64,000 nucleotides of DNA. Origin: an uncultured Candidatus Rokubacteria bacterium (GTDB lineage Bacteria; Methylomirabilota; Methylomirabilia; Rokubacteriales; DASRDR01). The stretch lies in contig CAWDVE010000019.1 of the NCBI GenBank assembly GCA_963805625.1, positions 544,001 through 608,000 of the forward strand, read 5' to 3'. The position numbers were made by a program, and so were the translations under genes. How positions within the stretch are numbered: the first letter of the stretch is position 1; every line of letters begins with the position of its first letter. Below, one piece after another: positions 16,478 to 57,143 of this stretch. The notes below the pieces were generated by a model, which had not been told where the DNA came from, did not search any database, and saw only the letters and a program-made list of their open reading frames with translations.

Positions 16478-17915
16478 TATCGCGCCATCTAAAATGTTAC
16501 CGAGCGGAAAGAGACGCGCCATCTGGAATGTAACCCTCGAGGGCCCCGTGGCCGGAGGAGGGTTACATGATGAGTCGCCGTGCGCGGTGGGAGGTCCTCA
16601 CGGCTGTCTACCCGCGCTACCGGGGCGCGGCCCGGGTCGAGCGGGGGAGGATCCTCGATGAGTTCTGTGAGACCACGGGCTACCAGCGCAAGTACGCGCT
16701 GCGGCTTCTCAACGGGCCGCCCCCGGGCCCCGAGCGGCCCCGTCGTCGGCGGCGCCCCGCCACGTACGGGCTGGCGGTGATCCAGGCGTTGACCGCGATC
16801 TGGGAGGCCGCGGGGTATCCCTGGTCTGTGCGGTTGAAGGCGCTGCTCCCCCTGTGGCTGCCCTGGGCACGCCGGCGCCTCCGGCTGTCCGCCACCGTGT
16901 GCCAGCAGCTCCGCGCGATCAGCCCCCGCCAGATCGACCGGCGCCTGGCCGCAACCAAGCGGCAGCGCACGACGCGCCGCTATGGCGGGACCCGACCGGG
17001 CACTCTCCTCAAGCACCACATTCCGCTGAAGACCGATCACTGGGATGTGACCGTGCCGGGCTTCACCGAGCTGGACTTGGTCGCGCATGCGGGCCATCGG
17101 GCCGATGGCGAGTTCGCCCATTCCCTGAACGTCACGGACATCCACACCACCTGGGTGGAGACCCGGGCGGTCCTCGGCCGCGGCGAACGCGGCGTCCAGA
17201 CGGCCTTGGACGAGATCCGGCAGGTCCTGCCCTTCCGCCTCCGGGGGATCGACTCCGACAACGGGTCCGAGTTCATCAACCATCATCTCTACCGCTACTG
17301 CCAGGCGCAGGAGATCCAGTTCACACGCGGCCGACCGTACAAGAAGGACGACAACGCCCACATCGAGCAGAAGAACTGGACGCACGTCCGGAAGCTCGTA
17401 GGCTACTGGCGCTACGACACGCCGGCGGCGGTGACCGCGCTGAATGCGCTCTATCGGCACGAGCTCCGGCTCTTGCACAACCTCTTCCTGCCGTCGGTCA
17501 AACTCCTCAGCAAGGAACGGGTCGGCGCGCGGTTGCGCCGTCACTACGATGCTCCGCGCACGCCCCTCGAGCGGGTCCAGAGCTGCCCCGAGGCGGATTC
17601 CCAGGCGGTGCGCGAACTCGTCCGCCTACGCGATCAGCTGGATCCCTTCGCCCTGGCCGAGGCCATCGATCGGAAGATCGAGCGGCTCGTCGCCTTGGCC
17701 ACGCCCGCGCGGGTGGCGGGCGTGCCCATCCCCACGGCGGCGAACTTCCCGCCCATCATCCCGGCACCGCCGAAGCCGCACCCGGGCCGCCCGCCCGGCA
17801 CCCCGGACTTCACCTTTGCCAACCACCTACGCCGGCCCCAGGCTCGGTCTCCGAGGGTTACATGTTAGATGGCTCGACGATTCACCCCTCGGTATCTTTC
17901 TTAGATGGCTTGACA
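16478..17915 (+). mobile_element. Insertion sequence (about 1.44 kb) with rve/DDE transposase and doubled subterminal repeats (IS481/ISNCY-like)
   Basis: Left end TATCGCGCCATCT and right end (rev. comp.) TGTCAAGCCATCT; about 21-bp GCCATCT...ACC repeats at 16484, 16518, 17853 and 17888; no perfect target-site duplication. Confidence 0.85.
16567..17868 (+). CDS. DDE (integrase-core) transposase
   Basis: ILDEFCETTGYQRKYALRLL, ELDLVAH, DSDNGSEFIN, RPYKKDDNAHIEQKN. Confidence 0.93.
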   Translation: MMSRRARWEVLTAVYPRYRGAARVERGRILDEFCETTGYQRKYALRLLNGPPPGPERPRRRRRPATYGLAVIQALTAIWEAAGYPWSVRLKALLPLWLPWARRRLRLSATVCQQLRAISPRQIDRRLAATKRQRTTRRYGGTRPGTLLKHHIPLKTDHWDVTVPGFTELDLVAHAGHRADGEFAHSLNVTDIHTTWVETRAVLGRGERGVQTALDEIRQVLPFRLRGIDSDNGSEFINHHLYRYCQAQEIQFTRGRPYKKDDNAHIEQKNWTHVRKLVGYWRYDTPAAVTALNALYRHELRLLHNLFLPSVKLLSKERVGARLRRHYDAPRTPLERVQSCPEADSQAVRELVRLRDQLDPFALAEAIDRKIERLVALATPARVAGVPIPTAANFPPIIPAPPKPHPGRPPGTPDFTFANHLRRPQARSPRVTC

Positions 17916-19485: not shown

Positions 19486-20340
19486 ATGGAGACCGGGCAA
19501 CCCGGCGAGCGAGTCGGCGCGCGGACGGGGGATGGCCATCCGTCGCTCGGCCGCCGGACCGTGCTCGGGATGGCGCTCGCGTGGGCGATCGCCCGTCCCC
19601 GCCGCGCCGCCGCAGAGACCGAGGCCCGCAAGGGCGCCTTCAGCGCGCGGGCCGCCATCCTCTTCGGCGCCTTCCGATTCGAGGAGAGCGGTGTCATCGA
19701 GGAGACGATCGACCGCGGCGCCGGTCGCTACGAGGTGCGGATCACCGGCGGGGGTCTGGAGATGACCACCGAGATCGAGTCAACCGGCATTCTTCGCGAG
19801 GGGCGCTGGGCGCCGCTCCGGTTCACGGACCGTTTCGTGGTCTACGGCCGGGAGTCGCGGCTCGAGATCACCTATGACCATGCGCGCCGTCTCGTCCAGT
19901 ACCGGGGCCGGAGCGAGACGTTTGTCCTCCGGCGCCTCCGGATGACGGACGACACGCTGGCGGTGCCCGCGGGCATGCACGTGGACGACGTCGTCAGCGC
20001 GACCCTGAACTACGCGGAGGGCCGGTGGCCGGCGGAGGCTGACGGCAGGCTCGTCACCCAGGTCGTGCGCCGACAGCGAACCCGGGGCGAGCGCCCGGAC
20101 GACGCGGAGCGTCGCTACCGTGCGGAGCTGGTGCCCTTCGAGCTCCGCGTGGGGTCGGACGCGAGCGGCCGGGCGACCGCGGTCCTGGACATGACGCCGT
20201 TCTCGTCGTGGGCGCGTGAGGAGGAGCCGGCGCGGATCGTCTTCGGCGCCGACCGGCGTCCCGAGTCGATCACCGCCACTCTCATCCTGGGAACCAGCCT
20301 GGCGATCAGGATCGGACCGGCGCCCGTCGTAGCCTCGTAG
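19486..20340 (+). CDS. Exported hypothetical protein with Tat-like signal
   Basis: LGRRTVLGMALAWAIA...AAA signal; beta-rich body; extended -10 TGG-TACCAT 6 nt upstream. Confidence 0.65.
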   Translation: METGQPGERVGARTGDGHPSLGRRTVLGMALAWAIARPRRAAAETEARKGAFSARAAILFGAFRFEESGVIEETIDRGAGRYEVRITGGGLEMTTEIESTGILREGRWAPLRFTDRFVVYGRESRLEITYDHARRLVQYRGRSETFVLRRLRMTDDTLAVPAGMHVDDVVSATLNYAEGRWPAEADGRLVTQVVRRQRTRGERPDDAERRYRAELVPFELRVGSDASGRATAVLDMTPFSSWAREEEPARIVFGADRRPESITATLILGTSLAIRIGPAPVVAS

Positions 20341-20355
20341 GGCGCCCGACCGGCC

Positions 20356-22659
20356 CTACGCGGCCGGCAGGCGGATCGTGAACGTCGTGCCGCGCCCGAA
20401 CTCCGAGTCGACGTCGATGGTCCCGCCGTAGCTCGAGATGATGCCGGAGACGATGGAGAGCCCGAGCCCCGTTCCGCTTTCCTTGGTCGTGAAGAACGGC
20501 TCGAAGATCCGCCGCCGCACGTCCGGGGGGATGCCGGTTCCGGTATCGGTGATCGACAGCAGGACCCAGTCTCCCTCGTGGCGCGTCTCGAGGGTTATGG
20601 ACCCTCCCCGTGGCATGGCGTCGACCGAGTTCAGCACGAGGTTGATCAGGGCCTCGCGGAGCTCCGCTGCGCGGGCCTGGATTCCGGGCACCGAACCCAG
20701 CTGCTGAGTGACCATGATCGGCGTGCCCTTGAGGTCGCTCTGCGACCAGCGCGGCCGCACGATCTCGATCGCCTGGCGGACGACCTCTCTGAGGTCCACG
20801 TGCTCGAGCCGGCGATCGACGTCCCGGCGGGCGAAGCGCCGGATGCGGCCGACCGTCTCCACGCCATCGCGGACGGCCTGCTCGATCGTCGACAGACCCC
20901 GCTGGAGGCGCTCGGGTGAGGGCTCGCGGGCGATGAGCTGCGTGTGTCCGAGGATCGCCTGGAGCAGGTTTGTGAAGTCGTGGGCCATGCCCATGGCCAG
21001 CTGACCGAGAGCGGATAGCTTCTCGGACCGGGCCAGCTGCTCCTCCCACCGACGCTGCTCGGTGACGTCGCGGACGATCAGGAGAAGCCCCGTCTCCTGA
21101 CGCCCGCCCCAGGGGATGGGCGAGCAGGTCGCGGTGAGATCCTGGACGGCGCGGTCGCCCTCCGCCTGGAGGCGCAGCACCACCGTCCGGCTTGCCCGCG
21201 GGGCCGCCAGCACCGGCTCGAGCTGTACCATCACGGCCGGCGGCATCGCGTCGCCGACGAGCTTGCCGCGCGCTTCGTCGGTTCCGCGGCCGAACATGCG
21301 CTCGGCCGCGGGGTTCCACGTGACGACCCGGCCCGCCGGATCGACCGCCACGATGGACTCGGCCGCCGACTCGATGAGGTTCTCCAGGAACGACTTGGCC
21401 TCCGAGAGCTCCCGGTGCAGGTTCGCGTTCCGGACGATCAGGGCGACCGACTCCGAGAACATCCGGAGCAGTTCCCGCTCGCTCGGGTCGAGCTCGCGGC
21501 TGGTTCCGACGACAAGCGCACCGAGGTGCCGTCCCTGCGCGACCAGGGGGAAGACGGCCCGTTCGGCCGTCTCGCTCCCCGCCGGCTCTCCCGGGTCGAG
21601 GAGGACCTGGACGCGCTCGTAACCTGCGCCCTGCTGGAGGTGATCGGTGATCGCGGCGAGCGTCCGGTCGAGCGCGGGGTCGACGAGCACGGCCGTGGAG
21701 ATTTGCCGCAGGATCTCGCCCTGGACCGCTCTGAGCGACTGCTCCGAGGCCTGGCGGGCGGCGGCAGTGAGGAGGGCAGACGTGCGCACGGCCGTGACCA
21801 TCAGATCCATCACGGGCCGGAGGGCTGCGAGGTCAGTACCGCCGGGCGCCGTCCGGCGATGGTAGAGCGCGAGGTGGGCCCACACGCGAGGCAGCCCCTC
21901 GTCCACCGTCGGCACGACCATGGCCGCCTCGAAGCCAAGGGCATCGAGCTCGGCCGGCCACGGCAACGGCCAGGCGAGGCCCGGCCGGCTGCCGACGGGC
22001 TCCCGGACGCCGTGTAGCGCCGTCCGCCAGGCGGCAACCACCGCGTCGCCCACTGCCGCCGGCAGCTCGGAGTGCACGATCGCGGCCGGTTCCGTGCTCA
22101 GGAAGGACGCCGCGGCGGCACCCGTCACGCGCTGGGCTTCGTGCAGCATGGCGCGCAGGAGTCTGGCGAGGTCGCCTCCCTGCACGGGATCCCGCCGCTG
22201 CGCGAGATCACGCATCTTTCCGATCAAGGGCGCGAGCGCGACCCCCGGGCCTTCCGTGCGCTGTCGCCGTCGGGCGAGGGCCCGCTCCGCGGCTTCCTGG
22301 AGCTCCCGGGGCGCGAATGGCTTTACCAGGTAGTCCATCGCGCCGAATCGCATCGCCCGTTGGACCGTGTCGAGCGACGCGTAGGCCGTGATCATCACGA
22401 CCTCCACGCCGGCATCGATCGCCTTGACGCGCTCGAGGAGCTGGACGCCATCCATCCGCGGCATCTTCACGTCCATGAAGATCACGTCCGGGCGAAGCCC
22501 GGGCAGGACCGCCAGCACCTCCTCGCCGCTCCCGGCCGTGAAGACCTGGTAGCGCGGCTTGAGGATCATGCGGATGGCCTCGCGCGGGCCTTCCTCGTCG
22601 TCCACGACCAATACGCGCGGCTCGGTCATGCGGGAGCCCCCCCCTGGGTCTCGGCTCAC
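20356..22659 (-). CDS. Cytoplasmic hybrid histidine kinase (REC-GAF-like-PAS-HisKA-HATPase)
   Basis: VLVVDDE, IFMDVKMP and DYLVKPF intact receiver; H-box MAHDFTNLL; DTGTGI, FEPFFTTK, GTGLGL. Confidence 0.92.
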   Translation of the reverse strand: MSRDPGGGSRMTEPRVLVVDDEEGPREAIRMILKPRYQVFTAGSGEEVLAVLPGLRPDVIFMDVKMPRMDGVQLLERVKAIDAGVEVVMITAYASLDTVQRAMRFGAMDYLVKPFAPRELQEAAERALARRRQRTEGPGVALAPLIGKMRDLAQRRDPVQGGDLARLLRAMLHEAQRVTGAAAASFLSTEPAAIVHSELPAAVGDAVVAAWRTALHGVREPVGSRPGLAWPLPWPAELDALGFEAAMVVPTVDEGLPRVWAHLALYHRRTAPGGTDLAALRPVMDLMVTAVRTSALLTAAARQASEQSLRAVQGEILRQISTAVLVDPALDRTLAAITDHLQQGAGYERVQVLLDPGEPAGSETAERAVFPLVAQGRHLGALVVGTSRELDPSERELLRMFSESVALIVRNANLHRELSEAKSFLENLIESAAESIVAVDPAGRVVTWNPAAERMFGRGTDEARGKLVGDAMPPAVMVQLEPVLAAPRASRTVVLRLQAEGDRAVQDLTATCSPIPWGGRQETGLLLIVRDVTEQRRWEEQLARSEKLSALGQLAMGMAHDFTNLLQAILGHTQLIAREPSPERLQRGLSTIEQAVRDGVETVGRIRRFARRDVDRRLEHVDLREVVRQAIEIVRPRWSQSDLKGTPIMVTQQLGSVPGIQARAAELREALINLVLNSVDAMPRGGSITLETRHEGDWVLLSITDTGTGIPPDVRRRIFEPFFTTKESGTGLGLSIVSGIISSYGGTIDVDSEFGRGTTFTIRLPAA

Positions 22660-24674
22660 TGATGAGTTCGCGGCAGCGTCAGGACGAAGCGGATCTCGCC
22701 CTCCTGGCCGCCGAGCGTCAAGGTCCCGCCGTGGCCTTCGACGATCTTCTGTGTCACGCCTGGACCGACGTCGAGTAGCTTGTCCGAGGCGATCGCGAGC
22801 GGGCTGAACAGGTGCTCGCGCTCGAGAGTCGAGAGCTGAGCGGGGCGTCCCGTGAGTGAGAGGCGCACTCGGCCGGGATCCTCCGGGGACGTCTGCAGGT
22901 GGATGGCCACGCGACCATCCGCATCGACGCGGTTGGCGAGGAATCGGACGAGGTAGCCGATCGCCTTGGTCAGTTGCTCGCGATCGGCCTTGACGACGAG
23001 GCCCTTCTGCGGCGCATAGAGGATCGCCGTCAGCTGCTCGGTGCGCTCCGGGACCTGGAGCAGGAAGAGCGCGGCGTCGCTCGGCCCCTTCGACCGCTCC
23101 AGGCGGACCGAGAGCTCCTCCAGCGCGTCGTGCAAGAGCTGCCGGACGTCGCAGAAGTCCACCTTGTAGTCGCGGTCACCGGCGAGTGTGATGAGCTTGT
23201 CGACGAGCGAGATCAGGCGCTGGGTGTCCTTGCCGACGACTGTGAGGAACGTTTCCCGGAACTCAGGGTCCTCGTACCGGTGCGGGAGCAGCTCGAGGAA
23301 CGTGTAGATCGACACGAGAGGGTTCTTGATCTCGTCCGTCAGGCGGAGCAGCACCCGGTTGAGGAGATCGAGCGTCTGGCTCGTCTGGCGCTCCCGGTGA
23401 AGCTTGTGCCGTGGCGTCGGGTCGTCGACCAGCATGACGGCGCCGCACGGGGTGCCGGTGGCGTCGAGGATCCGGGATGTGCTGAGCTCGAGCGTGATCT
23501 GGCGGCGGGGTAGCTCCACCTCCACTAACCGGAGCTCCCGCCCGCCCCGCACGGTCTCGTAGAGCAGGTCGCCGAGCGGCGAGGGCAGGACGCGGAGGTC
23601 CTGCCCGAGGACGTCGCCGAGGGAGAGCTCGAGAATCTGCTCCGCCCGGCGGTTGAATCGGGTCACCCGTCCGGAGGCGTCGATGGTGATGGCGCCGCTC
23701 TGGAGGTGGGTCAGGACCTGCTCGATGAAGCTGTGCTGGGCCCGGACGGTGTTGAAGAGGGCGATGTCCTCGACCGCCATGGCGACCTGGCTCGCCAGCG
23801 TGAAGAGCCGCTCCAGATCCTCTGAGCCGTAGGGCTGTCCCGTGACCCGCGGCCCGAGCACGAGGATTCCGACCAGCTTGGCCTGGACCCACAGCGGTAC
23901 CGCGACCTCGCCTCCCAGGAGCGCGAGCTCCCGGGCCGCCTCGAGCCAGTCGGGCTCCCGCTCGAGCTCGCCCCGCACGGCCAGCCGCACGTGCTGTCGA
24001 AACCAGTCGGCGAGCCCCTCACCGCTCTCCAGACGGAGCCGCTCGGCCAGATCGGGGTTGAGCCCCCGGAAGCCACGCGGCCGGTACCGGTGCTCGTCGT
24101 CGACCAGGAGGAGCGCCACTCGCCCCGGCCGCACGAGCTCGGTGATCGCGTCCAGGAAGAACTCGACGACACGCTCGATGTCGAAGTGCGCGGAGAGGAG
24201 CTTGCCCAGCTCCTTCAGCACCGTTCCGAGCGCCGTCGAGCTTCCATGGCCGTTCGTCGCAGCCGGGGCCGAGGCCGGCTCCCGCCGCGTCCGGTCCCGC
24301 CGAAGCGAAGCGACCTCCAGCTCGAGGCGCCGCACGCGGAGTCCCTGGTCGATCGCCAGCCGGAGCGGGGTGTCCGGTGTGTCGCGGGGCAGCGCGAGGT
24401 CGCAGCGGTCCACTCCCGGGGGAACCGGATCGTCGGGAGCCAGGAGCCCGACCAGGAACGGTCGCGACGCGATGGCGGCCGCTGTCGCCAGCTCGTCCGG
24501 GTCCACGTTGGCCGACCCGAAGTCCAGGAGGAGCAGGTCGGCCTGGCCGGCGGCACCCGGCTCGAGAGCCCGGGCCAGCGATCCGCTGGCCCCGAAGTCG
24601 AGGCTGCCGTTCAGGAGCCGGCGCAGGCGGGCGGCCAGGCCGGCATCGCGCGAGAGCACGCGGACCGTTCTCAT
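22656..24674 (-). CDS. Histidine pseudokinase (degenerate REC-GAF-PAS-HisKA*-HATPase*)
   Basis: H-box reads LTDEIKNPL (His to Asp); N, G1 and G2 boxes eroded (LLDVGPGVTQKIVEGHGG). Confidence 0.82.
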   Translation of the reverse strand: MRTVRVLSRDAGLAARLRRLLNGSLDFGASGSLARALEPGAAGQADLLLLDFGSANVDPDELATAAAIASRPFLVGLLAPDDPVPPGVDRCDLALPRDTPDTPLRLAIDQGLRVRRLELEVASLRRDRTRREPASAPAATNGHGSSTALGTVLKELGKLLSAHFDIERVVEFFLDAITELVRPGRVALLLVDDEHRYRPRGFRGLNPDLAERLRLESGEGLADWFRQHVRLAVRGELEREPDWLEAARELALLGGEVAVPLWVQAKLVGILVLGPRVTGQPYGSEDLERLFTLASQVAMAVEDIALFNTVRAQHSFIEQVLTHLQSGAITIDASGRVTRFNRRAEQILELSLGDVLGQDLRVLPSPLGDLLYETVRGGRELRLVEVELPRRQITLELSTSRILDATGTPCGAVMLVDDPTPRHKLHRERQTSQTLDLLNRVLLRLTDEIKNPLVSIYTFLELLPHRYEDPEFRETFLTVVGKDTQRLISLVDKLITLAGDRDYKVDFCDVRQLLHDALEELSVRLERSKGPSDAALFLLQVPERTEQLTAILYAPQKGLVVKADREQLTKAIGYLVRFLANRVDADGRVAIHLQTSPEDPGRVRLSLTGRPAQLSTLEREHLFSPLAIASDKLLDVGPGVTQKIVEGHGGTLTLGGQEGEIRFVLTLPRTHQ

Positions 24675-27160
24675 CGCGCCACCTCGGGCCGCACGGTCTC
24701 GGCCACGGAGCCGACGAGCGCGGGGAACTGCACCACGAAGGTGATGCCGAGCCCGGCCGGACCGGGATCCGCCCAGAGCGCCGCGCGGTGCGCGTCCGCG
24801 ATGCTGCGGCAGATCGCGAGCCCGAGGCCCGTTCCGCTGGACTTCGTCGTGAAGAACGGCTCGAAGACCCGGGCGAGATCCTCGCGCGGGATCCCGGGGC
24901 CGGTGTCCGTGACCCGGACCGTCACCAAGCCGCGGTCCGCGCGCTCGCGATCGGCCCGGACGGTCACCGTCAGGGTGCCGCCCGCGGTCATGGCTTCCAG
25001 GCCGTTCAAGAACAGGTTCAGGAAGAGCTGCTTGAGCTGGTCGAGCTCGCCCAGGATCGGTGGCAGATCACGCTCGATCTCGACCACCGAGCGCACCCGC
25101 CGGCGATCGGCCTCTCCACGAAGCAGGTCGAGCGTCTCCGCCAGGGGCACCTGGAGGTCGAGCGGGCGCAGCGGGAACGCAGTGGGGACCGCCAGGGCCC
25201 GGAGCCGCCCCAGGAGCTGTTCGATGCGGTGGATCTCCTTGACGGCGACCTTCGCGAAGGTCGAGCGGAACTCGTGGTCGTCGGCTCGCTCGGGCAGGAG
25301 CTCCGCGAACGTCTTGATCGCCACGAGCGGGTTCCGGATCTCGTGAGCGATGCCGGTTGCCATCGCGCCGAGGGCGGAGAGGCGATCGGTGCGCCGCTTG
25401 TCCTCCTCGAGCGCCTTGAGCCGCGAGTGGTCGTTGAGCACGGCGATCGCTCCGCTGACCGCCCCCTTGTGGTCGTGAAGCGCCGACGTGTGGACCACCA
25501 GGGGCAGAATCCGCCCCTCGGGATGGCTCACCGTCACCTCCGTCTCGGACTCCGACTGCTCGACGAGGCTCGACCGGAGGACGGCTCGAATGGCGGGGTC
25601 CAGCACATCGAGCGGCCGGCCCACCACGCGGGCGGCCTCGATCCCGAGAATGCGCTCTGCCGCCGGATTGAGGGTCATGACGACGCCGTCTTCCCGGGCG
25701 GCGATGACGCCCGAGTCCATGCGGCCGAGCAGACGCTCGTTGTACTCCTTGATCGAGACGATCTCGTGGTAGAGCTGCGCGTTCTTGAGCCCGATGGCGA
25801 GCTCGCTCGCCAGGGTCTCCAGGAGGTCGAGCTCGTCGCCAAAGAACGAATCGCCGGAGAGCTTGGGGCCGATCAGGATGATCGCCATCAGCCGGCCGTC
25901 CCGGACCGGCACGGCCGCCTCGGCACCCCAGGCCCGGAGATCCTGGAGCACGGTAGTCGGGTCCACGCTGCCGGGCCGAGCCCCGACAAGATCCCAGACG
26001 AGCGCGGCCGTCCCGTCCGACAGCTCCTGGACGAGCGGGCTCGTCCCTGACACCGGCTCCGCAGGCCACACGAAGGTCGGATCGACGTGCCGGGCCACGA
26101 GGGGTGTAAAGGCGTCGCGGTCCCGGATCCGCACGAGGATGGCAAGGCTCTCGAGACGGAGGGCACGGTCGATCAGGTCCGCCATGGCCATCGCAACCCG
26201 CGCGGGGTCGGCAAAGGTGCCCATCGCCCGGCTCCCCTCGCGGACGAGGGCACGCGTGTCGTAGGCCGGCCGGTACAAGTACCGGTCGGCGAGATGGCGC
26301 ATGCGCGGCGCGAATCCGAGGAACAGAGCGGAGGCGGCCAGGCCCAGCACCACCGCGCCGGCGGGCGAGAGCGTCGGGTTCGCCTCGGGGAAGAGCGCGT
26401 CCAGGAGGATCTCACCCCCGATCAGCAGGGCCGCCGTCAGCAGCCAGCCCGCCGCGTAGGCCGCTGACCGGCTGATGACGACCCGCACGTCCATGAGCCG
26501 GTACCGCAGGATGCAGTGGGCAGTAAAGCCGAGCCAGAGTAGCGTGAAATAGGGCCCGTACACGCCGAGCCGCGAGGATCCGGTGACGAGCGGCACGACG
26601 ACGCCGAGCGTGAGGGCGCCCGCCGCCGTGAGCCCGGCCCCGAGGAAGACGTAGTGGAGCTGGGCCCGGGCGAAGCCCGTGGTGTGTCGGAGCTTGCCCG
26701 CCAGGTGGGCGAGGGCCCAGGCAGAGCACAGGATCATGTACGCTCCGAGCAACCGGAAGGCCGGTCCGTACACCGGCTGCAGGTAGTTGGCCTCCTCGAG
26801 CCGCACGTCGGCCACAATCCAGGGCGAGAACGACAGGCCCGACATGAACAGGCCGAGGAAGGTCACCACCTGGGCGAGGGCCGGCCGGCGGGCCGCCGGC
26901 CGCGGGAACACCACCGCGAAGTGAGCGAACGTCACCGGGACGAGGGCTGCTGTCGCCCAGAGCACGCGCACCACGGCGAGGACCACCACCGGGTCGACCA
27001 GGCTCCGGCGGATGCCGACCAGGGTGCCCCACACAGCGAGGGTCGTCGCGAACGCCGCAAACCACCGGTTCACCGCGCGACCGGGGTTTCGCACCCAGAC
27101 CACGACCGCCAGCGCCACCTCGATCAGCGCGACCAGAAAGAGGCCGACGATCGGCGTCAT
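24671..27160 (-). CDS. Multi-TM (HisKA_7TM/PrsK-like) sensor histidine kinase with GAF and PAS
   Basis: Many N-terminal hydrophobic helices, ILRYRLMDVR; H-box IAHEIRNPL; NGLEAM, DTGPGI, GTGLGL. Confidence 0.92.
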   Translation of the reverse strand: MTPIVGLFLVALIEVALAVVVWVRNPGRAVNRWFAAFATTLAVWGTLVGIRRSLVDPVVVLAVVRVLWATAALVPVTFAHFAVVFPRPAARRPALAQVVTFLGLFMSGLSFSPWIVADVRLEEANYLQPVYGPAFRLLGAYMILCSAWALAHLAGKLRHTTGFARAQLHYVFLGAGLTAAGALTLGVVVPLVTGSSRLGVYGPYFTLLWLGFTAHCILRYRLMDVRVVISRSAAYAAGWLLTAALLIGGEILLDALFPEANPTLSPAGAVVLGLAASALFLGFAPRMRHLADRYLYRPAYDTRALVREGSRAMGTFADPARVAMAMADLIDRALRLESLAILVRIRDRDAFTPLVARHVDPTFVWPAEPVSGTSPLVQELSDGTAALVWDLVGARPGSVDPTTVLQDLRAWGAEAAVPVRDGRLMAIILIGPKLSGDSFFGDELDLLETLASELAIGLKNAQLYHEIVSIKEYNERLLGRMDSGVIAAREDGVVMTLNPAAERILGIEAARVVGRPLDVLDPAIRAVLRSSLVEQSESETEVTVSHPEGRILPLVVHTSALHDHKGAVSGAIAVLNDHSRLKALEEDKRRTDRLSALGAMATGIAHEIRNPLVAIKTFAELLPERADDHEFRSTFAKVAVKEIHRIEQLLGRLRALAVPTAFPLRPLDLQVPLAETLDLLRGEADRRRVRSVVEIERDLPPILGELDQLKQLFLNLFLNGLEAMTAGGTLTVTVRADRERADRGLVTVRVTDTGPGIPREDLARVFEPFFTTKSSGTGLGLAICRSIADAHRAALWADPGPAGLGITFVVQFPALVGSVAETVRPEVAR

Positions 27161-27172
27161 GGCAGTGCGGGG

Positions 27173-28402
27173 CTAGTTGTCGTCCGGGCGGCCGAGGATG
27201 ACCGCCGAGTGTGTGGGGCCGATGGCGCGCGAGGTGACCAGGACGCGGTTCACCCGGGCGGGCCGACCCCGGCCGGGCACGTAATCGAGGTCGCACTCGG
27301 GGGCGGGGATGTCGTGGTTCATGGTCGGAGGAACGAACTGCTCCGCCAGCGAGAAGCAGGCAGCCACCACCTGGAGGGCCCCACCCGCCGCGAACGGCTG
27401 GCCGATCATCGCCTTGATCGAGGTCACCGGGACGTTGTACGCGTGCCGGCCGAGCACGGCGCGATACGCCGCGCTCTCGGCCCGGTCGTGGCACGGTACG
27501 CCACCCCCGTGCGCGTTGACGTGGTCGATCTCCCCCGGGTCCAGGCGCGCTTCCTTGAGCGCCGCCCGCATGGCGGCCTGGAGTGACGCGCCCTCGGGGT
27601 TCACCGTACGGAGATCCAGGCCGTCGGTGCCGCTGCCGTACCCCAGCACCTCAGCGTAGACGTGGGCGCCCCGTGCCCGCGAGTGATCGAGATCTTCCAG
27701 CACATACATCCCGGCGCCCTCGCCCAGGACTGAGCCGTCGCTGAGCGCGTCGTAGGGGCGCAGCGCCTGCGCCGGCGGGCCGCTCCAGCGCGAGAGCCAA
27801 CCGAGCTTGCCCCAGGCCGCATGCACGGAGGTCGCCAGGGGTGCGTCGGCGGCTCCGGCCAGCGCGCCGACGATGCGGCCGGCGCCGATTTGGGCACACG
27901 CCCACTGGATCACGTCCACACCCGAGGCACAGCCGGAGCCAAGCGTCATGGTCTGGCCCTGGAGGCCCAGATCCACGGCCGCATGGTTCGTCAGGGCGTG
28001 CCCGATGCTCTCGACGACCATCGAGGCATCGCGCCGGCGCATCGACCGGCCCTGCAGCCGCTCGAGGACCTCCTGGAACTCGGCCACCGCGCTGGCGCCG
28101 CTCGCGACGCAGACCGCGAACCCGCTGGCAGCCCGGAGGCCTGGCAGGCCCGCGTCGTCGTACGCCATTCGGGCGGCGGCCATGCCGAACTGGGCGAAGC
28201 GCCCCGCAGGCGTGAGCCGCTCACCGGCCAGCTCGAAGCCCTTGACCTCGGCCGCGACCCGGCAGGCGAACGGCGCCGGGTCGAAACGGGTGATCGGTCC
28301 CACCCCGAGCGCTCCTTCACGGAGTCCGTGCCAGAACGGCTTGACGCCAATCCCGATCGGCGTCACGGCTCCGAGGCCGGTGATGACGACGCGACGTCTC
28401 AC
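27173..28402 (-). CDS. FabF-like ketosynthase with Cys-His-Gln active site
   Basis: RRVVITGLG, SGCASG (Cys), NAHGGG (His), SIKAMIGQPFAAGG (second His replaced by Gln). Confidence 0.88.
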   Translation of the reverse strand: MRRRVVITGLGAVTPIGIGVKPFWHGLREGALGVGPITRFDPAPFACRVAAEVKGFELAGERLTPAGRFAQFGMAAARMAYDDAGLPGLRAASGFAVCVASGASAVAEFQEVLERLQGRSMRRRDASMVVESIGHALTNHAAVDLGLQGQTMTLGSGCASGVDVIQWACAQIGAGRIVGALAGAADAPLATSVHAAWGKLGWLSRWSGPPAQALRPYDALSDGSVLGEGAGMYVLEDLDHSRARGAHVYAEVLGYGSGTDGLDLRTVNPEGASLQAAMRAALKEARLDPGEIDHVNAHGGGVPCHDRAESAAYRAVLGRHAYNVPVTSIKAMIGQPFAAGGALQVVAACFSLAEQFVPPTMNHDIPAPECDLDYVPGRGRPARVNRVLVTSRAIGPTHSAVILGRPDDN

Positions 28403-28653
28403 CCAGGCGCCTGTTTGAGGCGGCTCTCGACCAGAGCCACCATGTCCGCCACCGTCTTGAGCTTGGTCAGCTCCTCCTCGGGCACCTCGATGTCAAACTT
28501 GCGCTCGACCGAGATGGCGAGCTCGACCGCGTCGAGGGAATCGAGGCCGAGATCCTCGACCAGCTTCGCCTCCGGCACCAGCTGCTCCGGCGGCAGTCCG
28601 AGCCGTGCTGACATGATCTCCCGAAGCCCATCCGCGACGTCTTGCGCCGCCAC
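28399..28653 (-). CDS. acpP: Acyl carrier protein
   Basis: EDLGLDSLDAVEL phosphopantetheinyl-Ser motif; acidic, 84 aa. Confidence 0.93.
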   Translation of the reverse strand: MAAQDVADGLREIMSARLGLPPEQLVPEAKLVEDLGLDSLDAVELAISVERKFDIEVPEEELTKLKTVADMVALVESRLKQAPG

Positions 28654-29883
28654 TCATGCCTCCCCGCGGCTCAGGACCAGGATCGAGTTGGTCCCGCCGA
28701 ACGCGAACGAGTTCGACATCGCTACCCGGATCGGGACACGGCGGGCCTGGTTTGGCACGTAGTCCAGGTCGCACGCGGGATCCGGCGTCGTGTAGTTGAT
28801 CGTGGGGGGCAGGACTCCGTGGTGGAGAGCGAGCGCCGTCGCGATGGCTTCCACGCCTCCGGCGGCTCCCACGAGGTGGCCCGTCATCGATTTGATCGAG
28901 CTGACCGCCAGGCGCCGGGCATGCTCGCCGAAGACGGCCTTGATCGCCTCGGTCTCGTGCTGATCGTTCAGCGGGGTGGACGTCCCGTGCGCGTTGACGT
29001 AGTCCACCGCTTCCGGGGCGAGCTTCGCGTCCGCGAGGGCGAGCCGCATCGCCCGGGCGGGCCCGTCGGACGACGAGGCCGTCGGGTGGTTGGCGTCGGC
29101 CGAGAGCCCGTACCCCACCACCTCGGCGTAGATGCGGGCGCCCCGCGCCCGCGCCGCCTCCAGGATCTCGAGGACGAGGATCCCCGCGCCCTCCGCGAGG
29201 ACAAACCCGTCGCGATCCTTGTCGAATGGGCGGCTGGCAAGAGTCGGGGCATCGTTCCGTGTCGACAGCGCCCGGATCGACGAGAAGCCGGCGACGACCA
29301 GGGGATGGATGAGGGCGTCGGTTCCCCCGGCGAGCATGACGTCGGCGTCGCCGCGCTGGATCGTCCGGAAGGCGTCGCCGACGGCCTGGCTGCTCGCGGC
29401 ACAGGCCGTGGTGGGGCTGAAGATCGGCCCGCGTGCCGCCGTCCGCATGGACACCCACCCGGCCGCCATGTTGGGCAGGCTGCCCGGCAGCGCGTACGCG
29501 CTCACGGCCGCGATGCCCTCGCGCTGGAGCAGGTCCCACGAGGATAGGAGGAGAGGCACTCCGCCCATGCCGGTTCCGATCGACACGCCGACCCGGTCGT
29601 TCTGGCCATCGATCTTGACGCCGGAGTCCGCGAGCGCCGCTTGCGCGGAGATGAGCGCGTAGTGGATGAACCCATCGGTCCGCACGATGTCCCGCCGGGG
29701 TAGGTGAGCGGCGGCGTCGAAGTCAGGAATCTCTCCCGCGATCTGGCTCGGGTAAGGTGAGGGGTCAAATCGAGTGATCCGGCGGACCCCGCTCCGGCCG
29801 TGAGTCAGCCCGTCCCAGAAGGCGTCGATGCCGACGCCCAGGGGTGAAACCACGCCCAGACCGGTGACCACGACGCGCCGCAT
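28654..29883 (-). CDS. fabF: 3-oxoacyl-ACP synthase II
   Basis: TACAAS, NAHGTST, KSMTGHLVGAAG, SNSFAFGG; complete Cys-His-His triad; RBS GGAGG. Confidence 0.94.
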   Translation of the reverse strand: MRRVVVTGLGVVSPLGVGIDAFWDGLTHGRSGVRRITRFDPSPYPSQIAGEIPDFDAAAHLPRRDIVRTDGFIHYALISAQAALADSGVKIDGQNDRVGVSIGTGMGGVPLLLSSWDLLQREGIAAVSAYALPGSLPNMAAGWVSMRTAARGPIFSPTTACAASSQAVGDAFRTIQRGDADVMLAGGTDALIHPLVVAGFSSIRALSTRNDAPTLASRPFDKDRDGFVLAEGAGILVLEILEAARARGARIYAEVVGYGLSADANHPTASSSDGPARAMRLALADAKLAPEAVDYVNAHGTSTPLNDQHETEAIKAVFGEHARRLAVSSIKSMTGHLVGAAGGVEAIATALALHHGVLPPTINYTTPDPACDLDYVPNQARRVPIRVAMSNSFAFGGTNSILVLSRGEA

Positions 29884-30109: not shown

Positions 30110-31189
30110 TCAGGCTGGCCCGGGCGACCCGGTGGCGCCGGCGCGAGCGAGGATCTCGGCCACGAGCTCCCGATGCTCGGCGCAGCCGATGACGTCCAGG
30201 TCAGGGCAGGGCCGCGTCCGCTCGACCCACCGCCGGAGAGCCGCCCGGCGCCCGCACGCCGCCTGGGCGGCGTCCGGGGTCAGCGCCCCGCTCGCGAGCG
30301 CTTGGCCCACGGCCGCGACCGCCTCAGCTCGTGTCTCGGGCTCACGGCAGACGAGGGCGAGATCGCCGCCCACGGTGAGGAACCGCGCGGCCGCGATACC
30401 GACGCCCCAGGCGCTCCTGACTGCCGCCATCTCGAGATCGTCGCTCAGGACGAGGCCCCCGAAGTCGAGCTCCCGCCGCAGGAGTCCCGCGACGACGCCG
30501 GTTGACAGCGAGGCGGGCCACTCCGGATCGAGGGCCGGGTACCGCACGTGGGCCACCATGACTGCGGGGCATCCGGCCGCGAGGGCTCGGCGGAACGGCA
30601 GCAGCTCCGTCCGTTCGAGCTCGCCGACCGGGGCGTCCACCTCTGGGAGGGCCACGTGGGAATCGAGGGGCGTCCGCCCATGACCCGGGAAATGCTTGGC
30701 CACTGGTATGAGGCCTTCCGCCAGGGCTGCGCGGGTGAACGCCGTGCCGCAGGCCGCGACCGCCTCGGCGTCCTCCGCGTACGCTCGGTCGCCGATGACG
30801 ACGCTTTCCGGGTCCGTCCGGCAATCGAGGACCGGCGTGAGCCCGGAGTCGAACCCCGCGGCGCGCAGTTCGCGGGCCATCGCTCTGGCCACGCGCCCGG
30901 CGAGCGCGGGCTCGCCCGTCCGGCCGATCGTCGCCGCGGGAGGAAAGCACGTGAATGGCGGCGGGAGGCGATGGACGCGCCCGCCCTCGTGGTCTACGAG
31001 CACGAGCACGTCTGGGCCGAGCTCGCGCGCTGCCGAGGTCAGCGAGAGGACCGCGTCGAGGGTGGGGCAGTTTCGCGCGAAGAGCACGACGCCGCCCAGC
31101 CCAGCTTCGGCGGCCAGGTCGGCGATGGCCTCCGGCAGCGCGGTGCCCTCGAACCCGAGCGCGAGGAGCTCTCCGGCGCCGGTGCTCAT
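30110..31189 (-). CDS. nagZ: Beta-N-acetylhexosaminidase (GH3)
   Basis: DHEGGRVHRL, KHFPGHG...DSH, SDDLEM; downstream of ampG. Confidence 0.92.
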   Translation of the reverse strand: MSTGAGELLALGFEGTALPEAIADLAAEAGLGGVVLFARNCPTLDAVLSLTSAARELGPDVLVLVDHEGGRVHRLPPPFTCFPPAATIGRTGEPALAGRVARAMARELRAAGFDSGLTPVLDCRTDPESVVIGDRAYAEDAEAVAACGTAFTRAALAEGLIPVAKHFPGHGRTPLDSHVALPEVDAPVGELERTELLPFRRALAAGCPAVMVAHVRYPALDPEWPASLSTGVVAGLLRRELDFGGLVLSDDLEMAAVRSAWGVGIAAARFLTVGGDLALVCREPETRAEAVAAVGQALASGALTPDAAQAACGRRAALRRWVERTRPCPDLDVIGCAEHRELVAEILARAGATGSPGPA

Positions 31190-31287
31190 TGGGCTACCTT
31201 TGGACGGCCTTCGGCCGGTGGGGCTCCGCGGGCGTTGATTCGACGGCGATTGGACGGCCATCGGCCTGTGGCGGCCTGCGGGTTCAC
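31186..31287 (-). repeat. 102-bp junction repeat, copy B (GTGA and ATGA overlaps)
   Basis: Ungapped homolog of 3840-3941; an extra hairpin unit lies at about 31302-31322 inside the ampG 3' end. Confidence 0.9.
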
Positions 31288-32558
31288 TGGCCCGCCCTGT
31301 CGGACGGCTTTCGGCCTGTTGGCTCGCCTCGCCCGGCTGTCGGGCTGGGGGGGAGCCAGGATGCGATGAGCGGGACGAGACAGAGGCCGGGGAGCGACGC
31401 GAGAAAGGTGAGCGCGAAGTACGGGCCGTAGCCCCACCGCTCGGCGCCGATGCCGCTCACCGCGCCCGCGAGGCGGCCCGTGAACGAGAAGAGCGAGGAG
31501 AGGAACGCGTACTGGAGCGTGGCTCGCTCTGGATCGCAGACGGCTAGGAAGAATCCGAGGAACGCGGCGGTCCCGAGCCCGCCCGCGAATGAGTCGATCA
31601 TGGACGCCGCGTACAGGGCCGGCCAGGGCAGCTCCCACAGGGCGACCGCAGCGTAGCCGAGGTTCGAGACCGCCTGAGGCACGCCGAGCGCCCACAGGGC
31701 GGTCAGGGTGCCGTAGCGCTGCATGAAGGCGCCACCCGCCAGGGCCCCGGCGATCGAGAGCCCGATGCCGAGAGCCGTCGGGACCAGCCCGATCTCGAAG
31801 AGCGAGCGCCCACGGTCCACCCAGAATGGCTTAACCATCGGGCCGATCGCGAACTCGCCCAGCTTGTAGGTGAGGACGAAGAGGATGAGCGGGACCGCGC
31901 GCCAGGTGCCGATCCAGCCCACGAAGGGGGCGAGCCAGTGCCGGCGCGCCTCGGCGGGGACGTCGACCCGCGGGATCCGTCGGACTGCCAGGCCGAGCCC
32001 GGCGAACACGACCGCGGCAGCTTCGAAGAGAACGCTCCAGGGCAGCCACTCGGCGAGGGTGACCATGCCGCTGCCGATCAGGACCAGCGCCACGCGGTAC
32101 GCGGAGGCGCGGACGCCGTTCGCCGCGCCCTGCTCCTCCTGGTTCACCAGCGCGACGGTGTAGGCGTCGATCGCCATGTCCTGGGTGGCCGCGGCGACCG
32201 TCAGGACGAGGATCAGGACGATGAGGACGACCAGGCCGCGCGTGGCGTCGGTCATGGGGAGAAGGGCGACGACGAGCGCGACCACGAGCATGGCGCCGGT
32301 GACCCAGTCGCGGCGGTCGCCGAAACGCTGGACCAGCGGCGACCAGATGAACTTCAGAGAGAACGGCAGTTCGAGGAGACGGAGCCCGCCGATGGCGCGG
32401 AGCGACGTGCCCTGTCGGCGGAGGTAGACGGGCAGCACCTCCCACAGGACGCTCACCGGACTGCCCTCGATGAAGTAGAGGAGCCCCACGATCCCGAGCT
32501 TGGATCGCGACGCCTCGGGCAGCCGGCTGGCGCCGAGCAGCGTCCACAGAAGGCGCAT
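31284..32558 (-). CDS. ampG: AmpG-family muropeptide MFS permease
   Basis: LPFSLKFIWSPLV, AATQDMAIDAY, YKLGE, ATLQYAFLSSL; adjacent to nagZ. Confidence 0.88.
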   Translation of the reverse strand: MRLLWTLLGASRLPEASRSKLGIVGLLYFIEGSPVSVLWEVLPVYLRRQGTSLRAIGGLRLLELPFSLKFIWSPLVQRFGDRRDWVTGAMLVVALVVALLPMTDATRGLVVLIVLILVLTVAAATQDMAIDAYTVALVNQEEQGAANGVRASAYRVALVLIGSGMVTLAEWLPWSVLFEAAAVVFAGLGLAVRRIPRVDVPAEARRHWLAPFVGWIGTWRAVPLILFVLTYKLGEFAIGPMVKPFWVDRGRSLFEIGLVPTALGIGLSIAGALAGGAFMQRYGTLTALWALGVPQAVSNLGYAAVALWELPWPALYAASMIDSFAGGLGTAAFLGFFLAVCDPERATLQYAFLSSLFSFTGRLAGAVSGIGAERWGYGPYFALTFLASLPGLCLVPLIASWLPPSPTAGRGEPTGRKPSDRAGQ

Positions 32559-32630
32559 CGCGCGCATTGTACCCGAGCCCAGTTCGTGGGCCGCCGTAGA
32601 AGCGCGGGCCCACGCCTGCTCGCGCGGCTG

Positions 32631-56026: not shown

Positions 56027-56091
56027 CCGCGGCCGTCAACCACCTCGGCCCGTGCGTCACGGCACGGTGACGGCCGTGCTATAAGAGCGCG

Positions 56092-57084
56092 ATGCGATTC
56101 GGGTTCATTCCCACCGAGGGCGGGCACCTCGCGCGCGAGGCGCTGGCGGAGGTCGACCGCGCGGAGACGTTCGGCCTCGACTCCGTCTGGATGGAGGAGC
56201 ACCATGGCGTTCGCGGCCACTACTGGCCGTCGCCGCTCGTGGTGCTCGCAGGCTTCGCCACCCGGACGTCGCGGCTGCTCCTCGGCACCGACGTGGTGGT
56301 CCTGCCGTTCTACGATCCGGTTCGTGCGGCCGAGGATGCGGCGATGGTCGACGTGCTCTCGGAGGGCCGGCTCGTGTTCGGCGCCGCGATCGGGTACCGG
56401 CCGGACGAGTTCGCCCTCTATCGCACGCCGCTCGAGAAGCGGGGGGCGCGGTTCGAGGAGGCCCTCGCCGTGATCCGGGCGCTCTGGACGCAGGAGACGG
56501 TCACGCTTCCGGGGCCCCACTATCCGCTCGAGGACGCGCGTATCGAGCCGAAGCCCGTTCAGCGGCCGCACCCTCCGATCTGGATCGGCGGCTGGGGCGA
56601 GCTGATGATCCGGCGGGCGGCGCGCCTGGCCGACGCGTGGATTCCCGGCCCGACGGCGCACCTCCAGAAGCTGCTCGACGGCAAGGCGCGCTATCAGGCC
56701 GAGCTGCGGGCGGCGGGTCGGCCGGACCCGGCCGAGTGGCCGCTCACGCGCGACACCGTGATCGCCGACACCGACGCGGAGGCGCTCGAGCTCGCCGAGC
56801 GCCATCTCCTGGTGAACTACCGCGACGAGTACGGCGGCGGCCGCTGGAAGCACCCGCTCATCGGCGCAGAGGATGCCACGCCGGTGGACCAGCTCGACGC
56901 GCTCGGGCGCGACCGCTTCGTGATCGGCGGGCCCGAGCGGTGCAGGGCGCAGGTGCGGCGCTTCATCCAGGCGTTTGGCGCGACCCACATCATCTTCCGG
57001 CTGTACTTTCCCGGGATGCCGCACCGCCATATCCTCCGGGAGCTGGAGCTCCTGGCCCGCGAGGTCGCGCCCGCCTTTCGCTGA
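56092..57084 (+). CDS. LLM-class flavin-dependent oxidoreductase
   Basis: SVWMEEHH, LPFYDPVRAAED, GYRPDEF, PKPVQRPHPPIWIGG. Confidence 0.92.
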   Translation: MRFGFIPTEGGHLAREALAEVDRAETFGLDSVWMEEHHGVRGHYWPSPLVVLAGFATRTSRLLLGTDVVVLPFYDPVRAAEDAAMVDVLSEGRLVFGAAIGYRPDEFALYRTPLEKRGARFEEALAVIRALWTQETVTLPGPHYPLEDARIEPKPVQRPHPPIWIGGWGELMIRRAARLADAWIPGPTAHLQKLLDGKARYQAELRAAGRPDPAEWPLTRDTVIADTDAEALELAERHLLVNYRDEYGGGRWKHPLIGAEDATPVDQLDALGRDRFVIGGPERCRAQVRRFIQAFGATHIIFRLYFPGMPHRHILRELELLAREVAPAFR

Positions 57085-57143
57085 CCCGCCGCCCGGGCCC
57101 GCGTGGCGAAAGGGCCCGCGCGGCCAGGCGTACAATACCGGAG

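Follow-up and report, generated by a model that had tools for sequence, protein, structure and literature searches.

A FabF-fold ketosynthase and the sensor domain of its neighbouring membrane kinase are exchanged as one block among Rokubacteria relatives: a candidate synthase-receptor pair for a lipid signal

In the CqsA/CqsS and LqsA/LqsS systems, the synthase of an acyl-derived autoinducer lies beside a multi-helix membrane kinase, and in the staphylococcal agr system, where the signal is a peptide, the signal gene and the N-terminal sensor domain of the receptor vary jointly while the kinase core is kept. The Phc operon of Ralstonia (phcB-phcS-phcR-phcQ), as presented in the accessible portions of three papers, comprises the synthase of a fatty-acid-derived signal, a sensor kinase and a protein that joins a receiver (REC) to a kinase (PMC8578825; see also PMC6989110); strains group by signal type through their PhcB and PhcS sequences (PMC8578825), and the phospho-accepting His of PhcS is H230 (PMC11960443). 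According to the available sections of PMC4578411, a Glu reaching over from the partner subunit is the base in OleA and PpyS, which condense two acyl chains, the PpyS product is a quorum signal, and photopyrones and dialkylresorcinols are signals. Here we analysed a stretch of 64,000 nucleotides from an uncultured Candidatus Rokubacteria bacterium (contig CAWDVE010000019.1, positions 544,001 to 608,000; hereafter the window), in which six minus-strand genes encode two ketosynthases (KS1 and KS2), an acyl carrier protein (ACP), a membrane histidine kinase with a seven-helix (7TM) sensor domain, a pseudokinase and a hybrid kinase. We demonstrate that KS2, an altered ketosynthase, and the sensor domain of the next gene are exchanged as one block between relatives, while the downstream relay stays. 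On balance we consider it probable that the two serve as synthase and receptor of a lipid signal that the cells make themselves and that exists in allelic dialects, with product, binding and secretion as predictions.

The locus resembles Phc, as far as the sources cited above describe it, in that a single gene row holds a synthase candidate, a membrane kinase and a soluble protein with REC and kinase domains that lacks a DNA-binding domain. It differs in having a FabF-fold ketosynthase where Phc has the S-adenosylmethionine (SAM) methyltransferase PhcB, with no methyltransferase among the six genes; in placing the kinase His at residue 606 behind 7TM, GAF and PAS domains, compared with the H230 given for PhcS; and in having a His-less pseudokinase and no PhcQ. 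The Cqs and Lqs systems share with it a synthase candidate beside a multi-helix kinase, and one 7TM kinase of the Nitrospirota follows a pyridoxal-phosphate (PLP) enzyme of the BioF/SPT fold, but the PLP-dependent alpha-hydroxyketone synthase family is absent from the six window genes. The co-variation of KS2 and sensor domain follows the agr pattern, although the signal in agr is a peptide and the proteins are unrelated. A literature search, with most subscription papers outside its coverage, found no published description of the system, which is apparently an undescribed but conserved variant of synthase-receptor signalling.

KS2 (27173-28402, minus strand) belongs to a clade of its own, hereafter KS*, with support of 100 in a KS overview tree built with FastTree, in which deep branches are weak. 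The initial annotation had left its reading of the locus dependent on whether the link to the kinase is conserved in relatives, and it is, with KS2, the 7TM domain or the pseudokinase as the starting point for choosing loci. A full-length close match to KS2 (E<1e-90) occurs in 27 of 40 relatives; loci were searched with tblastn, as low-GC genes escape open reading frame (ORF) calling filtered on GC content at third codon positions (GC3), and in all 20 loci taken from these 27 a 7TM kinase directly follows KS2. Among 75 metagenome loci picked by the 7TM domain, 7 lacked upstream DNA and the others have a KS directly upstream without exception (68/68). The pseudokinase has a match at E<=1e-60 in 144 of the 251 genomes of the phylum (138 at E<=1e-130; 18/20 in the host family, 120/159 in its largest sister family and 0/65 in six other families). 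Twenty pseudokinase-picked loci were chosen non-randomly, four of them for their lack of a known KS2 match; 7 stop short of the KS position, and all 13 others contain a KS with a 7TM kinase. KS* lies directly before the first kinase in 9 of these 13, KS* and its kinase have been relocated jointly in 2, and in the remaining 2, from another order, the kinase comes after an intact-triad KS, an SDR-family gene (present as remnants only at one locus) and a methyltransferase of the ICMT type. In five near-complete genomes without a full KS*, we found a contig-end KS* fragment beside its usual neighbour in one and nothing in four; since all five contigs end in or just before the kinase gene, absence of KS* is neither shown nor excluded. 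Counted from all three sides, the conserved core consists of KS*, one or two 7TM kinases, the pseudokinase and the REC-kinase. One locus (L037, G014:C5:535500-555400) has many frameshifts in all genes, including flanking ones, and likely reflects sequencing error, not decay.

Comparison of the KS and sensor phylogenies, suggested at the outset as a check, revealed an association that is strong and specific by distances, approximately unbiased (AU) tests and a sliding window. KS and the first 7TM domain (7TM1) were present in 73 loci and all five parts in 35 (24 after near-duplicate removal); AU tests and distance correlations used 16 loci outside the host family, and the AU clades were chosen after the first trees. 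Tree distances of KS correlate with those of 7TM1 at rho 0.94, as against 0.54 for the pseudokinase and 0.44 for the hybrid kinase. The pseudokinase instead follows the hybrid kinase (rho 0.92-0.94), the second 7TM domain (7TM2; 0.91, 14 loci) and the upstream DUF gene (0.90, 12 loci), and mutual agreement among the pseudokinase, hybrid kinase, 7TM2 and this divergent DUF gene lies at rho 0.81-0.92. In partial correlation, KS follows 7TM1 (0.92) rather than 7TM2 (0.14). The AU tests are reciprocal: three clades of the pseudokinase/hybrid trees fail with KS and 7TM1 (p 5e-6 to 0.004), and two clades of the KS/7TM1 trees fail with the pseudokinase, the hybrid kinase and the kinase core (p<=0.002); one kinase-core test gave p 0.056. 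In L190, L044 and L200, the first kinase changes its nearest partner around residues 200-250, where helix 7 has its conserved end, and the cytoplasmic GAF, PAS and kinase domains therefore do not travel with KS. In 25 loci outside the host family, with near-duplicates counted, the KS*-kinase block has a GC3 of about 0.63 and the genes downstream of it have 0.89-0.92; in the window locus the block has been ameliorated. Inside the host family the pattern is weak, with KS2 and the 7TM domain grouping L035 with L036, and the kinase core, pseudokinase and hybrid kinase grouping L036 with L038. In the host genus, G300 and R392 of KS coincide with W68, L185 and G186 of the receptor (9/9 rows, compared with 0/64 of the others), which amounts to one lineage event.

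Mere adjacency could move two genes jointly; against that, the flanking controls stay behind and the breakpoint spares the cytoplasmic domains. It is scarcely credible that the genes are neighbours by history only, the KS serving specialised lipid synthesis and the kinases sensing something unrelated. Such a history would accommodate the conservation of ampG and nagZ upstream in the host family with no evident link, and the 7TM homologues that have no enzyme neighbour, but it does not account for the unbroken adjacency in the 68 loci, the joint relocation in two genomes or a joint exchange with an intragenic breakpoint. The joint exchange of KS2 and the sensing part of the receptor is likely the sign of a chemical language not described before, by which cells would produce a lipid signal and respond to their own variant of it.

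What KS2 might make is suggested by the residues it has kept and lost. It scores 324 bits with TIGR03150 and fails the FabF cut-off of 494, and its predicted model aligns to P. aeruginosa FabF (4b7v) with a TM-score of 0.94. In 73 KS* copies directly before a 7TM kinase, the catalytic Cys (C158) is present in 73, the first His (H298) in 72 and the Lys (K330) in 73, but the second His position holds Gln in 54 (Q335 in the window) and His in 19. The pantetheine-binding Thr305 and Thr307 of FabF correspond to G300 and V302 of KS2, and Thr is found at 300 in 0/73 and at 302 in 2/73. Residue 392, just before the gating loop, is His in 62 copies and Arg in 9, including the window (R392) and the host genus. 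Newly conserved besides this His are E131 (69/73) and H135 (71/73), which by alignment fall in the FabF helix after 'SPFF'; this helix we take to be part of the dimer interface. Both histidines catalyse decarboxylative condensation, and mutating these threonines impaired two polyketide synthase (PKS) enzymes, as stated in the accessible text of PMC9006962. Given these roles, retention of the Cys together with loss of the second His and the threonines suggests that KS* is under strong constraint to carry an acyl-Cys, but not to elongate chains in the normal way. An unreduced beta-keto elongation product, as initially envisaged, would not be an obvious output of KS2, since residues that FabF uses for malonyl-ACP are lost; KS2 is a candidate for a specificity-setting signal synthase.

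KS2 shares with PpyS, OleA and DarB the thiolase fold and the acyl-Cys, and those enzymes, as their source has it, condense two chains head-to-head. They carry the Cys-His-Asn triad of the FabH type, whereas KS2 is of the FabF type, and the PpyS signal has a LuxR-type receptor, whereas a membrane kinase lies beside KS2. Against the DarB model KS2 had no match and KS1 scored 18.8 bits, and both had FabF-type matches only. GTDB contigs scanned with generic patterns drawn from the KS2 alignment gave mostly ordinary FabF and PKS loci, with a 7TM gene nearby in 2/80. Since KS2 has lost malonyl- and pantetheine-binding residues, we propose that it would load an acyl chain on Cys158 and join to it a second acyl or beta-ketoacyl chain without decarboxylation. 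E131 and H135, near the dimer interface, may then serve as base, as the Glu does in OleA and PpyS. This two-chain condensation is our preferred chemistry, although within the signalling reading we hold it to be about evenly balanced.

Retention of the Cys in every copy while condensation residues decay would also be expected if KS2 were a non-catalytic or acyl-trapping sensor subunit docked to the kinase. Most loci lack an ACP or tailoring gene (30 of the 40 informative ones), direct contact likewise predicts co-inheritance, and KS domains do occur fused into signalling proteins. We nevertheless regard a docked subunit as unlikely, as the swapped block leaves out all cytoplasmic kinase domains and the sensing of a cell's own acyl pool offers no evident reason for repeated allele exchange. 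The fusions, found among the top KS matches in 50% representatives, join KS domains to PilZ, REC, PocR or PocR-GGDEF (P0037, P0084, P0130, P0087, P0076, P0086, P0083, P0090, P0098 and P0121) and fall outside the KS* clade.

The first two genes of the operon, KS1 (28654-29883) and ACP (28399-28653), both with open reading frames, are of a more ordinary kind. KS1 passes as FabF (TIGR03150, 569 bits; cut-off 494), has an intact triad (C161, H299, H336) and the HGTST motif, is 55% identical to the housekeeping FabF and lies within canonical FabF in the KS tree. The ACP reaches 74 bits with TIGR00517 (cut-off 70), carries Ser39 in a DSL motif and is 40% identical to the housekeeping AcpP. A separate housekeeping cluster, plsX-fabD-fabG-acpP-fabF, is present at G000 C10:1137981-1142720, and a third KS cluster (G000 C4:23773-29814) holds three KS-like genes, an ACP-like ORF and a lipid acyltransferase-like gene. 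KS1-ACP is found in 11/11 loci of the host family and 0/9 of other families (one of the 9 with little upstream DNA). In metagenome loci picked by the 7TM domain, an ACP precedes KS* in 10 and is absent in 30 of 40 informative loci, with 28 not judgeable. Since KS1 nests with housekeeping FabF and KS* stands apart as a clade, the KS1-ACP pair is most readily understood as a gain made later, at the level of the host family. The initial annotation's module of two KS and an ACP was thus correct in its genes and domains but is peculiar to this family, leaving KS2 alone as the conserved synthase candidate. Its wider reading of a signalling operon withstands two conditions named as able to refute it, as a separate housekeeping fabF-acpP exists and the linkage is conserved; what falls away is the stress on KS1-ACP.

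At the back gate, KS1 has Met at the position of FabF Ile108 (GxxMGG in 18/18 KS1 copies, GSGIGG in housekeeping FabF), and its gating loop 2 is shortened. In the accessible text of PMC9006962, Ile108 is the gate of FabF, and bulky residues there shorten or split the chain-length preference of other KSs; together with the Met, this suggests a dedicated shorter precursor, and the likely contribution of KS1 is an acyl or beta-ketoacyl chain of short or medium length. An intact KS gene upstream of a degenerate one also fits a different arrangement, in which KS2, resembling a chain-length factor (CLF), would pair with an active FabF (KS1 or the housekeeping enzyme), reshape its tunnel and yield an unusual acyl product that is sensed. 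A FabF/degenerate-FabF heterodimer has been shown in anammox bacteria (bioRxiv 10.64898/2026.05.19.726425), and KS2 shares with KS-CLF heterodimers and the anammox pair amxFabF2/amxFabF-mut both the fold and, in the host family, the adjacency of intact and altered KS. We find such a partnership quite unlikely. In that preprint's available text, the triad is missing from CLFs and from amxFabF-mut, the latter with Val or Thr in place of Cys, whereas KS2, itself below the FabF cut-off, retains Cys, His and Lys nearly without exception and shows newly conserved polar residues. Moreover, KS* mostly has no partner KS, as KS1 is absent from most loci, and inside the host family the KS1 tree follows firmly neither the KS2/7TM grouping nor the relay grouping.

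The membrane kinase (24671-27160, minus strand) consists of the 7TM domain, two further helices, GAF, PAS, HisKA with an intact His (H606) and HATPase (E 4e-24). Its sensor domain (residues 1-225; 26486-27160, minus strand) matches PF16927 at 36.9 bits (threshold 28.6) and is the only such domain encoded in the host genome of 7.27 Mb and 70% GC. A GPCR-like (G-protein-coupled receptor) fold is predicted from the model; Foldseek with the 7TM model gave no match at E<=0.001, and a search for the 7TM domain in plasmids gave none. In its accessible text, PMC5847659 describes HisKA_7TM as a sensor domain of archaeal kinases and gives no ligand and no link to biosynthetic enzymes. R65 was considered as a mark of a carboxylate ligand and is unsupported, as it is also kept beside methyltransferases. 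The pseudokinase (22656-24674, minus strand) has GAF, PAS and HisKA domains, no HATPase match and a degenerate ATP-binding domain; Asp447 occupies the phospho-His position in a DEIKNPL motif that recurs in 116 of 120 homologues among the matches listed, the other 4 being without a motif match. The phospho-His is kept in the distant copies L051, L148 and L166. Homologues are labelled Methylomirabilota or Rokubacteria, and the N-terminus, read from the alignment and without a family match, appears to be a degenerate receiver-like domain. The hybrid kinase (20356-22659, minus strand, or starting at 22629) is a REC(D63)-GAF-PAS-HisKA(H560)-HATPase protein with no DNA-binding domain. These architectures agree with those first assigned. 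Elsewhere in the window (56085-59621, plus strand), a membrane protein with a weak 7TM-profile match, GAF and an adenylate/guanylate cyclase domain has no PF16927 match.

The receptor family extends beyond the host order, to 54/201 Nitrospirota and 120/151 Omnitrophota genomes searched. The best 30 Nitrospirota and 29 Omnitrophota loci are kin to one another. Directly upstream of the receptor, 21 of the 30 Nitrospirota loci have an acyl, redox or methyl enzyme and 9 have none; the enzymes are a LuxD-like transferase with methyltransferase (8), HMG-CoA-reductase-like (4), acyl-ACP-reductase-like (2), PilZ-methyltransferase (2), ICMT (2), aldehyde dehydrogenase (1), BioF/SPT-fold (1) and KS-ACP-reductase (1). 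An upstream enzyme was found in 19 of the 29 top Omnitrophota loci, 22 scanned and 7 judged by eye: 11 methyltransferases, 2 acyl-ACP-reductase-like enzymes, 1 altered KS and 5 others. With regard to KS2 as a docked sensor subunit, the presence of unrelated enzyme folds in the same slot before this receptor family counts against it, as a diffusible product fits such variety better than a docking surface. The BioF/SPT-fold enzyme scores 216 bits with the alpha-hydroxyketone synthase model, whose cut-off is 428. One Nitrospiraceae genome has the order KS, ACP, thioester reductase, 7TM kinase, pseudokinase orthologue and REC/HD-GYP protein. Of 11 Nitrospirota loci fetched for a pseudokinase-like gene, 9 carry a soluble PocR-GAF-GGDEF input in place of the 7TM domain, and the DNA retrieved for these contains no KS (one locus scanned, the rest assigned by similarity).

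Fusions of a LuxD-like acyltransferase to a SAM methyltransferase precede HisKA_7TM in the Nitrospirota at L319:9444-12305, L321:8053-10068, L325:9350-11662 and L327:8861-11191, with a PilZ domain in 2 of the 4 full-length copies scanned (L319, L321); they would make a fatty-acid methyl ester, a logic close to that of PhcB. HMG-CoA-reductase-like genes lie directly upstream of 7TM kinases in both phyla (L222, L224, L227, L235, L376), and SAM methyltransferases of about 340 amino acids with a shared C-terminal motif precede many Omnitrophota 7TM receptors (L357, L358, L360, L364, L366, and the same family at L374, L377, L379, L380 and L381). Nearer the host, the largest sister family has a 7TM kinase clade of a separate kind, whose members follow methyltransferase and GNAT genes (L328-L330, in G029, G034 and G021). 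At L114:3187-4863, the gene immediately before a distant 7TM kinase encodes a GH3-family protein, and a divergent KS lies nearby.

A self-made lipid need not leave the cell. KS2 could make or remodel a membrane lipid that the kinase monitors in the bilayer of the same cell, as a homeostatic or developmental circuit. The system is near-core in the order, as the counts for the host family and its largest sister family show, its operon contains no exporter, and in one relative the paired 7TM kinases of a KS* operon have a fatty-acid desaturase gene between them (L195:6216-6824). Repeated exchange of enzyme and sensor and the low-GC3 block, however, point to diversifying, between-cell selection, and many relatives keep a second, vertically inherited 7TM kinase alongside; a same-cell circuit therefore seems very unlikely to us.

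With the possible exception of one junction, the six genes are arranged as first described. All six ORFs are open at the coordinates given; the KS1 stop abuts the GTG of the ACP gene, followed by a GTGA overlap, a 12-nt gap and an ATGA overlap, and FabD, FabG, FabZ and thioesterase genes were looked for at the locus and none was found. A last GTGA overlap, between pseudokinase and hybrid kinase, stands if the latter starts at its GTG and is lost if it starts at ATG 22629, 30 nt further on; the stretch upstream of this ATG is G-rich and relatives align from about 22629, so that a 26-nt gap is at least as likely. A promoter scan found 0 promoters, and 2 terminator-like sites where 1.8 were expected. 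RNA contigs from three runs (word shares 0.06-0.24) derive mostly from relatives, the longest pieces listed being about 200-700 nt. On the plus strand, convergent with the operon, lies a linked gene (19495-20340, start uncertain) whose product has no Pfam or NCBIfam match and only a DUF3108-like lead, an Atlas match of 0.95 with a low recognition score. This gene adjoins the operon in most of the 20 KS2-picked loci and many of the other fetched loci, in other families it is divergent and directly upstream of KS*, and it is a possible operon accessory. Upstream of KS1, nagZ (GH3) and ampG-like MFS genes (30110-32567, minus strand) are preceded in the host genus by a GAF-GAF kinase; we rejected nagZ and ampG as operon parts, as they are upstream in the host family only and more than 200 nt away. 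About 2.5 kb beyond the operon end, a transposase/integrase-like ORF was recognized by eye (16567-17868, plus strand).

The model we favour, a synthase-receptor pair for a self-made signal, is as follows. A small lipid made by KS2 would be the signal, bound within the membrane by the seven-helix domain that the adjoining gene encodes. In most relatives the acyl-ACP would come from housekeeping fatty-acid synthesis, and in the host family the added FabF copy and ACP would provide a dedicated, probably shorter-chain supply. Ligand binding would change autophosphorylation at H606, with the His-less pseudokinase as heterodimer partner or scaffold, and the phosphate would pass to the hybrid kinase's receiver (other lineages have a REC/HD-GYP protein in this role), the final target lying elsewhere. 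We would go further only tentatively, with a little less than even confidence, to a view of HisKA_7TM proteins as widespread GPCR-fold receptors of lipid autoinducers served by interchangeable acyl-processing synthases. The host order, whose bacteria are abundant and uncultured, would then use a near-universal, undescribed quorum-sensing language built on a non-decarboxylating FabF-type KS, with the swapped cassette setting strain dialects and the product forming a new signal class.

If our reading is correct, the orphan HisKA_7TM receptor family would gain a ligand class and ready-made synthase partners, and a FabF-type ketosynthase with non-standard chemistry would join the known signal synthases. 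The natural occurrence of matched and mismatched synthase-sensor alleles makes the idea testable in E. coli without culturing the organism. Altogether, the exchange of KS2 with its receptor domain would point to signalling between cells in a lineage for which metagenomes are almost the sole record.

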